From contig DALYDK010000004.1 of assembly GCA_031973215.1 (NCBI GenBank), positions 12,019-76,018 on the forward strand: a DNA stretch of 64,000 nucleotides. The letters are read 5' to 3'. Shown piece after piece: positions 29,370 through 63,019 of the stretch (positions are counted from its first letter, which is position 1; each line of letters begins with the position of its first letter). Under the pieces are notes generated by a model. That model worked only from the letters and a program-made list of their open reading frames with translations. It was not told the origin of the DNA and did no database searches. A program made the position numbers and the translations under genes. Source of the DNA: Candidatus Saccharimonadota bacterium (GTDB lineage: Bacteria; Patescibacteriota; Saccharimonadia; Saccharimonadales; CAIOMD01).

Positions 29370-30755
29370 ATGGGTGGAAAAAATAAAAAACCAATTTCAT
29401 TTGACTATGACTTAGTTGTCATTGGGGCCGGTACCGCAGGGAGTGTAGCTGCAAACCTGGCTGCAAATCATGCTAAAAAAGTAGCCATTATAGAAAGTAA
29501 TAAAATCGGAGGAGAGCAACTCTGGTCAACTACTATACCTACTAAATGGCTTATGGAATCATTAAAATTTTATCAAAAAGCTAAAAAAGCCAATTCTCAA
29601 GGCTTAGATATAAGCGTTTCGCCGATTAGTATAGACAAAATAAAACATTATTTAAGAAAAACTCAAAACAAAGCATCTGGGGCAGAAACAAATGTATTTA
29701 AAGATGAAAACATAAAAACATACAATGGTAACGCAGATTTCATAGACAAATACCATATTAGTATTAATGGTAAAAAAATATCATCAAAATACTTTCTGAT
29801 TGCCCCAGGGGCTTCTCCAGACAATTCTATTGCCAAAAAGTTTAATGTAACCAATTTTCTTACATATAGAGACCTAGCTGAGCTTAATTTCAGTGGCAAT
29901 AGTTTTTGTTTTATAGGAGCCGGGTCAGTCGCGTATGAATATTCGCAAATACTTACAATGCTAGGATTTAACGTGCATGTAATAGAAAAAAATAATCATA
30001 TATTGCCCAAGTCCGATAACGAAGTAAGCGATATATCTGAAGATATCCTAATTAAACATTCAGTTAAACTACACACTGCTAGTTTTGTCGAAGATATTAA
30101 ACAAAGCAACAGTAAATCAATTATTCATTTTATTAAAAACCAAAGAAGGTACCGTTTGGCTGTAGATAACTTAGTGTTGGCATCCGGTAAAATGCCTAAT
30201 GTAAAAAACTTAGGCCTAGAAAATGCTAATGTTCATTTTGACGAAAAAGGAATTAAAACTAATAGGAAAATGCAAACATCACAAAAAAACATATTTGCGG
30301 CAGGTGATGTCGTAGGTTCCGAGTCGGGATACGAAGCAATATATGATGCACAAATTGCAGTTCATAATATGTATTTTAGAAAAAAACTAAAAAAATCTAG
30401 AAAAGCTATTCCGAAAGTTGTTTATGGCTCTACAGAAATTGCAACCGTTGGTGTTAGCGAATTGCAGCTAAAACTATCGGGTAAAGTATACCAATCCTCC
30501 ATAGCGCCCGCTGGTATAACAGCAAGATCTCTTTACGGTCAATATGAACTTGGATTTGTAAAAATACTTGCTAACCACAAAGGCATAGTTGTTGGCGCAA
30601 GTGTAGTTGGAGAAAACGCTACAGAGCTTATTAATATATTGTCAGTTGCAATTAACAACAATATGCAAGCTTGCGACTTAGCAAAAACCGTTTATTCAAG
30701 TCCTAGCTGGTCAGAATCTATCAAAATCGCAGCAAGCAAAATTTATTGCTTATAA
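29370..30755 (+). CDS. FAD/NAD(P)-binding pyridine nucleotide-disulfide oxidoreductase homologue lacking the redox-active cysteines
   Basis: DLVVIGAGTAGS, FIGAGSVAYEY and AAGDV dinucleotide motifs. The GGxCxxxGCxPSK site reads GGEQLWSTTIPTK. The C-terminal HPxxSE reads SPSWSE. Start taken at ATG 29370 (the track uses TTG 29340). Confidence 0.8.
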   Translation: MGGKNKKPISFDYDLVVIGAGTAGSVAANLAANHAKKVAIIESNKIGGEQLWSTTIPTKWLMESLKFYQKAKKANSQGLDISVSPISIDKIKHYLRKTQNKASGAETNVFKDENIKTYNGNADFIDKYHISINGKKISSKYFLIAPGASPDNSIAKKFNVTNFLTYRDLAELNFSGNSFCFIGAGSVAYEYSQILTMLGFNVHVIEKNNHILPKSDNEVSDISEDILIKHSVKLHTASFVEDIKQSNSKSIIHFIKNQRRYRLAVDNLVLASGKMPNVKNLGLENANVHFDEKGIKTNRKMQTSQKNIFAAGDVVGSESGYEAIYDAQIAVHNMYFRKKLKKSRKAIPKVVYGSTEIATVGVSELQLKLSGKVYQSSIAPAGITARSLYGQYELGFVKILANHKGIVVGASVVGENATELINILSVAINNNMQACDLAKTVYSSPSWSESIKIAASKIYCL

Positions 30756-30777
30756 AAAACTGCCATGAATATGGCAG
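30754..30777 (-). terminator. rho-independent terminator (copy 1 of a duplicated hairpin)
   Basis: CTGCCAT-GAAT-ATGGCAG; on the minus strand it is followed by TTTTTT. Overlaps the stop codon of the plus-strand oxidoreductase gene. Confidence 0.65.
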
Positions 30778-30791
30778 TTTAATTGTGCATC

Positions 30792-30809
30792 TGGTGGGGC
30801 TGGCTGGGT
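30792..30809 (-). repeat. 18-nt copy of the tRNA-Met 3' end (positions 59-76: ACCCAGCCAGCCCCACCA)
   Basis: 18/18 identical to 30965-30982, same orientation, 173 bp away. Confidence 0.9.
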
Positions 30810-30926
30810 ATCGCCTTGCTACTTCCTTTCGCGCCATGCTCGAATCAAGCTTCTGCGCGTGGCACTTAATACACGAACCACTTTTGATAAATCAAAAGAC
30901 CTGGTTCTCACGCCATGCCAGTCCAA
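30810..30926 (-). repeat. G+C-rich structured tRNA-trailing unit, copy A (body)
   Basis: Two-tier hairpin CGCGC-AGAA-GCUUGAUUCGAGC-AUG-GCGCG (30830-30859). Long hairpin GAACCA..CUUUUGAU/AUCAAAAG..UGGUUC. Shares sequence blocks with copies B, C and E. Confidence 0.7.
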
Positions 30927-30928
30927 AT

Positions 30929-30952
30929 AAAAAACTGCCATAAGAATGGCAG
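30929..30952 (-). terminator. rho-independent terminator of tRNA-Met (copy 2 of the duplicated hairpin)
   Basis: CTGCCAT-AAGA-ATGGCAG; on the minus strand it is followed by TTTTTT. Confidence 0.7.
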
Positions 30953-30964
30953 TTAGTTTGCATC

Positions 30965-31040
30965 TGGTGGGGCTGGCTGGGTTCGAACCAGCGACCAATC
31001 GGTTATGAGCCGACTGCTCTAACCACTGAGCTACAGCCCC
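30965..31040 (-). tRNA. tRNA with CAT anticodon (elongator Met or Ile2), CCA encoded
   Basis: Hand-folded, 76 nt: GGGGCTG/CAGCCCC acceptor, GTCGG-CTCATAA-CCGAT anticodon arm, GCTGG-TTCGAAC-CCAGC T arm. Confidence 0.9.
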
Positions 31041-31084
31041 AAATAACTATAAAAGTATACACTAATATATAATATTAAATACAG

Positions 31085-31522
31085 ATGATAAACAAAATTA
31101 AAAAAATATTTAGCAATCAAGAGATATTCAACTCTAAAAATATGTCTATAGTATTGTTTTTAATAATTTCACTATCTGTGACCTGGAGTACGGCTAAAAT
31201 AATTCAAAAAAACTACTATCTTCAACAGCAAATATCTCAGCTAGAGCAAGAAGTGTCACTTCAGGAGCAAATTAATCAAAATCAAAAACTTAAAAATAAA
31301 TACTTTGAAACAGATTCATATCTTGAAATTGCCGCAAGAAGATATTTCCAAAAAAGCTTGCCGGGGGAAAGGCTCTATATAGTCCCTAAAGATGTAGCAC
31401 TTAGCAAAATAAAAACTCCCGAAAACAGCTTGGCTCAGCCGGAAAGTCTGTCTGAAAAGTCATTTATTATTAAAAACTGGCAATCCTGGATTAATTTTGT
31501 TTTAGGAAAACAAAACAAGTAA
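31085..31522 (+). CDS. septum formation initiator FtsB/DivIC family protein
   Basis: N-terminal TM segment, coiled coil (QQQISQLEQEV...) and ...EIAARRYF.KSLPGE, typical of the DivIC family. Confidence 0.7.
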   Translation: MINKIKKIFSNQEIFNSKNMSIVLFLIISLSVTWSTAKIIQKNYYLQQQISQLEQEVSLQEQINQNQKLKNKYFETDSYLEIAARRYFQKSLPGERLYIVPKDVALSKIKTPENSLAQPESLSEKSFIIKNWQSWINFVLGKQNK

Positions 31523-31545
31523 CGAATGCTAACTTGGCATAAAGA

Positions 31546-62014: not shown

Positions 62015-62382
62015 TTCTTCGATCCCTTCTTTAGTTTATTCTCGCCCTTCTGAATACTGGCGACGTAGTTCTCCAGTTTTTCTTGATTGTTCCCCCAATA
62101 AGCATGATATTGAGTTATCCAATTTTGCATCAACAATAGTGCTGTTCTGTCTAGTGCTAGGAAGTTGGTTTTGCCAACTTTCTTGCGCAGGACTAAACTT
62201 GCTTGCTCGAGCACTCTGATGTGCCTATGTATAGCTGGCAAAGACAACTTTTGTTGATCTGCTAACTGAGCAATAGATGCTGGGTGTAAGCCAAGTGTAT
62301 ACATAATTTCTCGCCTGTGTTTGTTGGCGAGGGCGGTAAACACTTGGTCTAGTGACTCGGTATCATTAATCTTAGTTAACAT
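62011..62382 (-). CDS. ArsR family transcriptional regulator
   Basis: ALANKHRREIMYTL...SIAQLA....SLPAIHRHIRVLE winged-helix pattern. Confidence 0.8.
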   Translation of the reverse strand: MLTKINDTESLDQVFTALANKHRREIMYTLGLHPASIAQLADQQKLSLPAIHRHIRVLEQASLVLRKKVGKTNFLALDRTALLLMQNWITQYHAYWGNNQEKLENYVASIQKGENKLKKGSKK

Positions 62383-62427
62383 TAATGTTAAGTGTACTCT
62401 ATTTATAGTGAACTGTATAATCTAAAT

Positions 62428-62724
62428 ATGGAGATCAATTTCAAGAGCAAACTATGGGAATGGTCGGGCAAAGGTGCGTGGTGTTTCGTTTCCTTACCGA
62501 AAGAATACTATGACGAAATCAAGGTAATAAGTAGCTCGCCAAAGAGGGGTTTTGGATCTGTAAAAATTGAAGCGAGTGTTGGAAAAACAGTATGGAAAAC
62601 ATCGATATTTCCAGACACAAAATCAGGTACTTACTTGCTCCCAGTTAAGAAAGAGATTAGAAAAGCTGAAAATCTTAGTATTGGGAGTGTCATAGATATG
62701 AAAGTAAGATTGATCGATTATTAA
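62428..62724 (+). CDS. DUF1905 domain protein
   Basis: W.F..LPKE......GFGSVKI.A.VG...W.TS.FP pattern. ATG 62428 lies 6 nt after TATAAT (62416-62421), suggesting a leaderless mRNA; the track starts at GTG 62392. Confidence 0.7.
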   Translation: MEINFKSKLWEWSGKGAWCFVSLPKEYYDEIKVISSSPKRGFGSVKIEASVGKTVWKTSIFPDTKSGTYLLPVKKEIRKAENLSIGSVIDMKVRLIDY

Positions 62725-62731
62725 TAGCGAC

Positions 62732-62750
62732 AGGTCTAGGGAACAGGTCT
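62732..62750. repeat. AGGTCT-N7-AGGTCT site, copy 1
   Basis: AGGTCTAGGGAACAGGTCT; its partner lies 174 bp away. Confidence 0.6.
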
Positions 62751-62796
62751 GATTTTGGAGTGCTTGCTCCTTCAGGACGGGAGGGGCTGGGTTAGA

Positions 62797-62875
62797 ACTA
62801 ATTTACAGGGGTAAAATGAAAGAACCGCCATTTCTGACGGTTCCAACATTTGTAACTTACGAACTGTAAATTAGT
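62797..62875. other. 12-bp inverted repeat enclosing a hairpin
   Basis: ACTAATTTACAG (62797-62808) and CTGTAAATTAGT (62864-62875) enclose GAACCG/CGGTTC (62822-62843). On the minus strand the inner hairpin plus GGCGGTTCTTTCATTT resembles the terminator of copy B. Confidence 0.55.
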
Positions 62876-62905
62876 ATTTCTCTGACCAAAGAGAGAAGTT
62901 ATTGT

Positions 62906-62924
62906 AGGTCTAGGAACTAGGTCT
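62906..62924. repeat. AGGTCT-N7-AGGTCT site, copy 2
   Basis: AGGTCTAGGAACTAGGTCT, 20 nt from the tRNA-Asn 3' end. Confidence 0.6.
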
Positions 62925-62944
62925 ACGTTTTTCTCTGCTTGGTC

Positions 62945-63019
62945 TGGCTCGGGAGACTGGATTCGAACCAGCGACCTAGTGGTTAACAGCCACCCGCTCT
63001 ACCGCTGAGCTACTCCCGA
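62945..63019 (-). tRNA. tRNA-Asn (anticodon GTT), CCA encoded
   Basis: Hand-folded, 75 nt: TCGGGAG/CTCCCGA acceptor, GGTGG-CTGTTAA-CCACT anticodon arm, GCTGG-TTCGAAT-CCAGT T arm, discriminator G. Confidence 0.9.

Follow-up and report, generated by a model that had tools for sequence, protein, structure and literature searches.

What is the small, G+C-rich body that recurs behind different tRNA genes of one chromosome and each time leads into a second copy of a tRNA 3' end? The question is posed by three units, A, B and C, in a 64-kb segment (hereafter the window) that is chromosomal and comes from Saccharibacteria, judging by its gene set (including RuvAB, DnaK/J, FtsH, ComEC-like and pilM-like genes) and by its closest relatives, which are annotated as such. 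Three of its five tRNA genes, called by ARAGORN and Rfam, bear a unit (tRNA-Met, tRNA-Asn and tRNA-fMet, respectively), as do two of four in the related locus L007 (L-numbers label related loci outside the window). An earlier note on this DNA had put forward three explanations, namely miniature non-autonomous elements, small RNAs with a tRNA-like tail, and reverse transcription halted at a methylated A58 (m1A58). We found that the copied 18 nt are the outer half of a longer tRNA fragment split by a conserved, structured insert (INS), and that close relatives differ in the number and kind of units at the same tRNA gene. We tentatively regard the units as undescribed small non-autonomous elements at tRNA genes.

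Read in tRNA sense, a unit comprises the intact tRNA, a palindromic terminator (T1), an inverted, degenerate copy of the 3' part of the tRNA into which the distal arm of T1 continues, a small hairpin whose apical loop is often C-GNA-G, the hexamer GGTTCG, INS and a copy of tRNA positions 59-76, often followed by a second terminator. The 18-mer had been described as an identity that begins at T-loop position 59 and stops before A58. Its start at 59 was confirmed, whereas the homology does not end there: GGTTCG, the 5' half of the T arm (positions 52-57), lies ∼60 nt upstream of the 18-mer, at the 5' edge of the core and immediately before INS in all units. Because this half stands beyond INS, the 18-mer is, on sequence comparison, the distal part of a tRNA 3' fragment interrupted at position 58. 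INS (∼55-65 nt, GC-rich) takes the place of A58; reading of the unit sequences gave a pyrimidine before N59 in 19 of 21 units and the tRNA's A58 in none, while in two variants the copy takes in A58 (GGTTCGA/AGACAAGG). This tally and those for T-loop association and arm pairing below rest on 13-21 units. In three units (L026, L039a and L004-Val) positions 46-51 also equal those of the local tRNA at 6/6 (GTCGCG, GTCGCA and GTCGGG), and window units C and B match it with one indel; as a general rule, this extension was rejected, as it is confined to one subfamily and lacks significance across the whole set of units. Three further proposals were discarded: that GGTTCGGGCGCCA is the 3' end of another tRNA, in the manner of a primer-binding site (none of 31 sampled tRNAs ends so, and a T-arm 5' half that pairs with a CGAACC upstream is the better explanation of GGTTCG); that positions 49-53 and 61-65 of the unit form a T-stem of their own (kept in only 5-6 of 17 units); and that the body is a decayed tandem copy of a whole tRNA (its last 58 nt are unlike positions 1-58, and one body occurs at different tRNAs).

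Upstream of GGTTCG lies the small hairpin and, before that, the CGAACC-bearing strand with which GGTTCG pairs (helix P1). This strand is part of the inverted copy of the local tRNA 3' part, which includes GGATTCGAACC-like sequence and is clear in some units (22/26 in L034-Met, 15/17 in L026 and 14/17 in B, where TGAATTCTAAACAGCGA was compared with the reverse complement of tRNA-Asn) and weak in others; inverted arm and P1 are present in all units. In A, GAACCAG at 30901-30907 provides the 5' strand of P1, and the arm pairs better with its own 18-mer than with any other 18-mer tested. In C, GCGACT (31722-31727) pairs with AGTCGC (31748-31753), and the G at 31749 plus TCGCAAGGTTCG gives GTCGCAAGGTTCG, which matches tRNA-fMet positions 46-57 with one extra A. 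The terminator likewise draws on the tRNA: in unit-bearing tRNAs the stem of T1 includes the last 1-5 tRNA bases (mean 3.3; at least 2 in 17/18, the exception being a divergent tRNA-Leu(cag) unit), as in C, where the arms 31658-31676 and 31682-31700 take in the ACCA end, while at tRNAs without a unit the stem starts after CCA and in most includes 0-1 tRNA bases. The overall layout is thus tRNA 3' part, hairpin axis, inverted copy, hairpin axis, and a direct copy carrying INS. The length of the direct repeat varies from 11 to 57 nt, and the terminal bases before the junction show no conservation beyond the pyrimidine.

The core of INS is structured and under constraint. An alignment of 13 units yielded a gap-free core that starts at GGTTCG and runs GGTTCG-GGCGCCA, an 11-nt strand, GCAG, NNN-CUUG-NNN', CGA, the complementary strand, UGCGC, the short hairpin P3 and 1-4 bases ending in C or T before position 59; the strands in the middle form P2, a long hairpin that has a CUUG tetraloop and, as its conserved internal loop, GCAG/CGA. 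Over P2, the closing GCGC helix and P3, 80% of the cells are standard pairs, compared to 63% in shuffles, and 56 cells carry compensatory double changes, compared to 20 (0 of 500 shuffles reach 56), while sliding the register by 1-3 columns leaves no more than 14; the covariation score is 0.438, against 0.160 for shuffles and at most 0.105 for slid registers. The three apical pairs, for example, are seen as AAG/CUU, AUG/CAU, CUG/CAG, UUG/CAA and AAA/UUU, the P2 loops and the junction are invariant across distant genomes, and a C.A opposition recurs at one fixed position of P2. The apical pairing that had been thought to covary, GCUUG/CGAGC, can form but shows only one compensatory change; the covarying register is NNN-CUUG-NNN'. 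The tip of P2 (alignment columns 28-43; 31783-31798 in C) accordingly holds two mutually exclusive helices, both nearly always possible, of which NNN-CUUG-NNN' covaries and GCUUG-NNN-CGAGC is nearly invariant, a pattern that may reflect a conformational switch or mere chance. Two loop types, the G-C-closed CUUG tetraloop and the numerous C-GNA-G triloops, point to the tRNA-sense strand as the folded one; an assignment of the strand from G.U versus A.C counts was abandoned as ambiguous.

Outside the window, we scanned the pattern GGTTCGKG..GCCA..GCAG..RCTTG...CGA over one genome per prokaryotic species, which returned three Saccharibacteria genome bins and a few GC-rich chance matches, and a shorter pattern over metagenome contigs, which added eight low-GC loci. 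Divergent members were sought through downstream repeats of each tRNA's positions 59-69, and syntenic loci through homologues of a small DivIC-like gene between units A and C. As relatives were found through conserved motifs, the sample is biased to the main subtype, and its contigs are mostly short metagenome pieces. Every true match has the same layout behind a tRNA, and the architecture occurs in about 20 further Saccharibacteria loci and at at least 10 tRNA species, among them tRNA-Leu(taa) (L004), tRNA-Glu (L005 and L010, the latter with two tandem units), tRNA-Arg(tct) and tRNA-Arg(tcg) (L007), tRNA-fMet (L019), tRNA-Cys (L020) and tRNA-Asn (L026 and L031), with divergent members at tRNA-Val and tRNA-Leu(cag) (L004) recovered via the 59-69 repeats. 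About 20 of 22 units are minimal and uniform in size, with bodies of ∼110-125 nt, and those matched by a covariance model all stand, in this small sample, at tRNAs with a TTCGA T-loop. To judge from these scans, the family is so far seen in Saccharibacteria only. A viral, phage or plasmid origin was set aside, as no similar sequence appeared in a motif scan of viral contigs or in blastn of phage and plasmid records. Literature searches returned no prior description of the units, in line with the earlier statement that no described element has this architecture, and Rfam, too, gave no match.

Comparison of close relatives shows the units to be variable. At the tRNA-Met site, where the upstream flank is identical across relatives, five loci (L035, L036, L038, L039 and L042) have no unit, only the tRNA and its terminator, the window has one, and L034 a perfect tandem pair (period 173 bp, 2.3 copies at 99% identity). 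L037 (2633-3005) shows another kind of event, a classical replacement of the anticodon-loop type: decayed 5' and 3' halves of the old tRNA-Met, the latter from the anticodon loop onward, flank ∼150 bp and a new, complete tRNA-Met that differs in its acceptor stem and T arm. The nearest relative, L041, whose DivIC-like protein is 94% identical, has an empty tRNA-fMet site; L034, L035, L039 and L042 carry different units there. In L037 and L038 an extra unit lies between this tRNA and a terminator equal to the window's T1, which is followed by the start of the window's body C; because the extra unit precedes that terminator, new units enter on the tRNA side with a terminator of their own, and older ones are pushed outward and erode. 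At tRNA-Arg(tct) of L007, the repeat, terminator and body start that have been displaced equal those found 3.4 kb away at tRNA-Arg(tcg); a unit type has been transferred between the two loci. Strict synteny without polymorphism or covariation, the pattern that by the earlier note would have refuted its proposal, is not what we see: relatives carry zero, one or two units at one site, and pairing covaries beyond shuffles.

Within the window, the combined motif pattern matches A, B and C only, with no match expected by chance, so that the motifs previously noticed in all three are real. A covariance model built from the related loci and then run on the window (R1) scored C at 68.6, B at 68.2 and A at 24.9 bits, with no other window site below E = 0.3; a weak match at 46816-46852 on the minus strand (13.2 bits, E = 0.32), in the 3' part of a DsbA-like open reading frame (ORF), is probably due to chance. 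A proposed fourth member, 'copy E' at 50081-50193, had to be dropped: R1 misses it, and its local alignment scores of 19-20 equal the shuffle mean of 19. The stretch around it (50060-50215) is intergenic between two minus-strand ORFs of unknown function and folds moderately (-32 kcal/mol). Rfam (15; gathering threshold and permissive E) found only tRNAs in the window, the best other matches (E >= 0.04) overlapping terminators or tRNAs, and lends no support to signal recognition particle RNA, transfer-messenger RNA, Y RNA or a group I intron as the identity of the units; Patescibacterial tRNA introns are located at position 35/36 (PMC13011429).

Units A and C were re-found as first described, with 18/18 and 14/18 identical copies beginning 155 nt past the tRNA end and hence a 173-bp period in both, a coincidence of a narrow size range, because the periods of other units span 154-181 bp. 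The direct repeat of A, taken before as 18 nt, is in fact ∼57 nt long and includes the spacer and the terminator (30752-30809 and 30927-30982), the outer copy of which doubles as the terminator of a convergent oxidoreductase gene. Within its INS, hairpin P2 with the GCAG/CUUG/CGA core lies at 30831-30865. Unit C has a promoter-like site upstream of its tRNA, at 31546-31574.

Unit B, likewise re-found between a 25-nt tRNA 3' fragment and an 18-mer 17/18 identical to tRNA-Asn, differs in that this fragment occupies the place held by the tRNA in minimal units, and in that it closes a 5.7-kb island whose proximal end is the intact tRNA-Asn(GTT). The 5.5 kb between them have a G+C content of 0.40-0.43, compared to ∼0.35, are rich in oxidative-stress genes, and encode a glutaredoxin, MsrA, MsrB, a DsbD-thioredoxin fusion, a thioredoxin, helix-turn-helix regulators (XRE- and ArsR-type) and a DUF1905 protein; no recombinase gene was found in this segment with Pfam. 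A second such case is L031, where a 4.6-kb YcaO/nitroreductase island likewise has an intact tRNA-Asn at one end and, at the other, a unit whose repeat is 17/18 identical. Immediately downstream of the window's tRNA-Asn (62760-62945, minus strand) we observed, besides a long hairpin and a terminator at about 62813-62845, two decayed fragments that resemble T arms, AGTTCGTAAG and AGTTCTAACCCAGCCCCTCCC, the latter similar to a tRNA-Met 3' part; these are probably older recombination scars.

Table 1. Parts of units A, C and B and of the tRNA-Asn island, in window coordinates.
Feature	Position	Strand	Basis
Unit A, intact tRNA-Met(CAT) (positions 59-76 at 30965-30982)	30965..31040	-	ARAGORN; Rfam tRNA 75.6 bits
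Unit A, spacer and palindromic terminator T1 (hairpin 30933-30954)	30927..30964	-	terminator scan; within 57-bp direct repeat
Unit A, degenerate inverted copy of tRNA-Met 3' part	30901..30926	-	alignment to reverse complement of tRNA 3' part
Unit A, apical A+T-rich hairpin of P1, CTTTTGAT-TT-ATCAAAAG	30881..30900	-	sequence reading; minimum-free-energy fold
Unit A, TGGTTCG = tRNA-Met positions 51-57 (T-arm 5' half), 3' strand of P1	30874..30880	-	
Unit A, INS, divergent A-type	30810..30873	-	covariance model 24.9 bits, E = 3e-4; pattern match
Unit A, distal copy of tRNA-Met positions 59-76, 18/18 identical	30792..30809	-	
Unit A, second spacer and terminator copy (T2, 89% identical to T1)	30752..30791	-	
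Unit C, intact initiator-type tRNA-Met(CAT) (tRNA-fMet)	31587..31661	+	ARAGORN, Rfam
Unit C, palindromic terminator T1	31662..31700	+	inverted repeat; fold
Unit C, degenerate inverted arm and helix P1	31701..31755	+	sequence reading, fold, alignment
Unit C, proximal half of split T arm, TCGCAAGGTTCG	31750..31761	+	sequence comparison with tRNA-fMet
Unit C, INS (GGCGCCA, hairpin P2, UGCGU, short tail)	31762..31816	+	covariance model 68.6 bits; covariation
Unit C, decayed distal copy of tRNA-fMet positions 59-76, 14/18 identical	31817..31834	+	
Island, intact tRNA-Asn(GTT), proximal end	62945..63019	-	ARAGORN, Rfam
Island, 5.5-kb cargo segment	57445..62944	-	composition; Pfam
Unit B, 25-nt tRNA 3' fragment (positions 52-76), foreign acceptor stem	57420..57444	-	repeat comparison
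Unit B, terminator T1 (hairpin 57392-57411)	57384..57419	-	terminator scan
Unit B, inverted T-arm-like arm and apical hairpin	57322..57383	-	alignment
Unit B, GGTTCG, T-arm 5' half	57316..57321	-	pattern match
Unit B, INS	57257..57315	-	covariance model 68.2 bits
Unit B, copy of tRNA-Asn positions 59-76	57239..57256	-	17/18 identical to intact gene 5.7 kb off

Our preferred reading, which we hold tentatively, is that the units are small non-autonomous foldback or integrative modules in tRNA 3' ends that recombine at 58/59 with a recombinase encoded elsewhere. A unit would enter by recombination exactly between positions 58 and 59 of a tRNA gene and supply a replacement for positions 59-76 together with a terminator, so that the tRNA would remain functional, while the old 3' end, shoved outward, would become the 18-mer. 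The conserved module beside the crossover would then be the cis-acting site, probably recognized as a folded structure, be it single-stranded DNA or a cruciform, with the inverted arm rebuilding a tRNA-gene-like duplex from which INS branches out at the crossover, and with cutting and joining left to the recombinase encoded elsewhere in the genome. Later, homologous recombination between the 18-57-bp repeats would duplicate or delete units, and natural transformation may carry them between strains; the pilM-like (type IV pilus assembly) and ComEC-like genes at 4924-5985 and 10972-12369 of the window would fit an uptake of single-stranded DNA. Of the explanations in the earlier note, that of miniature non-autonomous elements is the one best supported, by the presence/absence and copy-number differences, the unit swaps, the newcomers on the tRNA side, the cargo and the transfer between the tRNA-Arg loci.

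Several observations weigh against this reading. No integrase, transposase or reverse transcriptase (RT) gene was found beside units where neighbours are annotated, nor among the window ORFs scanned (Pfam, NCBIfam), several of which have no family match, in agreement with the earlier note; a search for tyrosine and serine integrases in the window ORFs and both cargo islands was equally negative, and no integrase remnant lies in the islands. The unit side of the crossover has no conserved sequence except the terminal pyrimidine, which is unusual for a site-specific recombinase, and no excised or circular form of a unit was seen. The inverted arm pairs clearly and specifically with its own 18-mer in only about 5 of 14 units (p about 0.07-0.09), and A.C versus G.U counts favour the opposite strand to that favoured by the loops. 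Units that lie at different tRNAs of different genomes and have unrelated terminators reach 88% identity in INS, and, because INS similarity does not correlate with terminator similarity (r = 0.08), INS and the tRNA-derived arms are separable modules that are not co-inherited. This sharpens the objection, raised before and still standing, that one family at many tRNAs is hard to reconcile with a single sequence-specific att site, and the model leaves unexplained how a unit acquires the 3' end and arms of a new tRNA. Gain of a unit could, in principle, also be plain homologous exchange between strains. That the units form a new class of mobile element, in which a ∼60-nt structured nucleic acid, its sole conserved part, inserts at 58/59 via a folded single strand (Holliday-junction-like or cloverleaf) and housekeeping enzymes, or via self-primed reverse transcription of pre-tRNA, using the tRNA's own 3' end and terminator as arms and having neither fixed ends nor an enzyme, looks unlikely to us, and we are as doubtful that the mechanism is of a new kind.

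An unlikely competitor is that the units are multi-copy, tRNA-linked genes for structured small RNAs, transcribed by read-through of T1 or from the opposite strand, with the tRNA-derived arms and CCA tail as processing or stability signals, and that their polymorphism reflects gain and loss of redundant genes via the flanking repeats. A G+C content of 57-66% (covariance-model matches) in a genome of ∼37% is what one would expect of such genes, as are the strong covariation of P2, the invariance of loops and junction, a possible four-way-junction, cloverleaf-like fold, the order of tail and terminator in most units, and the persistence of the core where the 18-mer has decayed (C, L019, L004 and L020). 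The covarying core and conserved loops are compatible with what the earlier note had proposed in this direction. However, conservation is lowest in the outer helix and the tail, the would-be processing signals; T1 terminates strongly, and no promoter-like site was found between it and the body in the three window units; single loci are dispensable, and close relatives have different variants at one site. There is no match in Rfam, and the position of the junction at 58/59 is left unexplained.

An origin by reverse transcription we consider very unlikely. It has remote parallels: a retroviral RT copies positions 59-76 (18 nt) of its tRNA primer before meeting m1A58, and variants of the Mauriceville retroplasmid of Neurospora acquire tRNA sequences and enter tRNA genes through homologous recombination. 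In a comparable manner, a pre-tRNA or read-through transcript would be copied and the complementary DNA recombine into the tRNA locus, with snap-back priming at the terminator producing the inverted arm, a second fold-back the direct copy, and a stall or template switch at the modified A58 the insert. Fold-back synthesis would account for the direct-inverted-direct order of tRNA 3' parts, and self-primed copying for the terminator palindrome, which passes without a break into the complement of the tRNA 3' end. The repeats of A and L034 stop inside or at the U-tract and hence at a transcript 3' end, many different tRNAs are affected, and the junction is fixed at 58/59, with the base at 58 varying (G, A or T) by subfamily. 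The main argument for a stop at m1A58 is lost, however, as homology does not end at 59: positions 52-57, in some units 46-57, lie beyond the insert, and 59 is the edge of an insertion in a longer tRNA-like fragment. While the units share the 18-nt stretch with retroviral primer-binding sites, their 18-mer is in tRNA sense and contiguous, across the insert, with the T-arm 5' half, and their host is a reduced-genome bacterium. In addition, the inverted arm crosses position 58 without an insert, the conservation of INS and of the hairpin loops is left unexplained, and the CCA is gene-encoded and provides no RNA-specific signature. Genes for an RT or an m1A58 methyltransferase were found neither in the window nor through a literature search, no RT gene was found near units, and m1A58 is not established for these bacteria. 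Group II introns are reported to be absent from Patescibacteria (PMC13011429).

We are equally sceptical, to the point of thinking it highly doubtful, that the units are inert scars of integrase islands or prophages, the body being the att-proximal arm of larger, mostly deleted elements. The classical signature of such islands and prophages reportedly is a tRNA 3' end repeated directly over 16-25 nt (Reiter 1989; Williams 2002), two cargo islands do end in a unit, and other repeat types occur at tRNAs here (the 25-nt repeat of L018 and the anticodon-loop replacement of L037). Scars would nevertheless be expected to decay, while the core is under purifying selection and covaries, and neither the minimal, uniform size of about 20 of 22 units, nor the perfect tandem pair in L034, nor the lack of matches in phage, plasmid and viral collections, nor that of an integrase gene or remnant in the cargo islands, speaks for remains of larger elements. 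To an RNA-guided homing system of the TnpB/Cas12 or CRISPR-associated transposon kind, with the body as scaffold and the 18-mer as 3' guide towards tRNA genes with TTCGA, we give almost no credence, since, for all that the order of scaffold, hairpin, 18-nt tail and terminator, the 52-62 nt from position 59 to the start of the body (measured by hand) and the TTCGA T-loops of the covariance-model-matched units would suit it, the tail decays while the scaffold is conserved, no effector gene was found nearby, the guide would target the functional tRNA gene itself with a perfect match, Rfam has no matching omega-RNA or CRISPR family, and the TTCGA link comes from a small sample, with a divergent unit at a TTCAA tRNA (L004 Leu-cag).

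Several known systems resemble modules of the kind we favour. Cis-mobilizable elements (CIMEs) and P4-type tyrosine-integrase islands likewise have tRNA 3'-end direct repeats (16-20 nt), leave the tRNA intact, form tandem arrays, include cargo-bearing and integrase-less derivatives and vary in presence between strains. As in CIMEs, we found an insert between direct repeats with an intact tRNA at one end (in the window and about 20 loci) and presence/absence polymorphism with a precise empty site; no integrase or integrase-bearing parent was found, however, in the window ORFs, the cargo islands or the phage, plasmid and viral collections. Moreover, the units differ from CIMEs by their body of ∼110-125 nt, by one body family at at least 10 tRNA species, by the junction at 58/59 and by the GC-rich, covarying att-proximal module inside the split T-arm copy. 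Integron attC sites and the forked attP(+) hairpin of CTX-phi provide a precedent for a site defined by a folded single strand rather than by sequence (a putative feature in the units), in which inverted target copies rebuild a duplex; integrons also receive new cassettes proximally and push older ones outward, and their integrase serves units that have no enzyme gene. In contrast to these, the target of the units is the T-loop rather than attI or dif, no integrase gene was found beside the array, and the repeat measures 18-57 bp instead of 6-7 bp.

The tycheposons that Hackl and colleagues are said to have described in Prochlorococcus in 2023 reportedly are of kilobase scale, with recombinases identifiable in autonomous members. 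They share with the units the tRNA hotspots, arrays of partial tRNA repeats, recombinase-less cargo and degraded remnants, but we know of no report of a structured module, miniature and conserved, in them. Miniature inverted-repeat transposable elements (MITEs) and foldback repeats (Correia, RUP and IS200/IS605-derived palindromes) are, like the units, small, non-coding, hairpin-forming, multi-copy and strain-variable, with enzymes provided in trans. Unlike them, the units have neither terminal inverted repeats of constant sequence nor a short target duplication of fixed length: their arms come from the local tRNA and are tRNA-specific and degenerate, their repeats measure 11-57 nt, and they lie behind tRNA genes only. 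Nor do they look like IS200/IS605 elements with a TnpB omega-RNA, given that tnpA and tnpB were not found, that the junction bases are conserved only as pyrimidine, and that the omega-RNA families of Rfam do not match. What they do have in common with nucleic acids of conserved structure is compensatory pairing beyond controls.

Saccharibacteria have tiny genomes under strong deletion pressure, yet a large share of the sampled tRNA genes bear units, which implies that something keeps making or keeping them. If mobile, they would be among the smallest site-specific elements known, and would show how tRNA genes can be invaded without inactivation and how kilobase cargo (redox defence, YcaO) can be placed at tRNA-Asn by islands without an integrase gene. 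The precise 58/59 junction offers a sharp handle for finding the enzyme, be it a recombinase acting on folded DNA or an RT in a phylum said to lack group II introns. If they are RNA genes instead, they would represent a new, abundant class of non-coding RNA in a phylum of the uncultivated majority. Units and tRNA fragments will confuse tRNA annotation and island prediction in genomes of the candidate phyla radiation.

Some loci carry further repeats behind tRNAs. In L018 (8780-9166, minus strand), a tRNA-Met(CAT) whose T-loop reads TTCAATT precedes a terminator, ∼135 bp of unrelated A+T-rich insert and a repeat of 24-25 nt that starts at G53; this is a separate repeat type, and the window orthologue of this tRNA (27859-27935) has no repeat. 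In L004, the divergent unit behind tRNA-Leu(cag) (4269-4450; T-loop TTCAAGT) has a left flank that ends in GTTCA and a right flank that begins with TCAAGTCC, so that identity runs from T55, with TCA on both sides of the insert, the sole case that does not start at 59. The repeats behind tRNA-Val and tRNA-Leu(taa) of the same locus (290-420 and 1350-1447, minus strand) break off after 11 nt (59-69), and both are followed by the same ∼90 nt (a hairpin, GCAACTNAACTGCTTNAGTTGC, then GAACGGGCGCAGCGTTGTCT...), which may represent another repeated element or the decayed remains of an older unit. A true boundary at 69/70, considered for L004 and L020, was rejected; the break is probably a later truncation, given the downstream sequence shared by both L004 cases. 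Finally, on the contig of L030, which has no intact tRNA, two units lie 550 bp apart (380-1140), with near-identical 18-mers (ATCCGGTCGGGC[C/T]CGCCA) and a small ORF between them.

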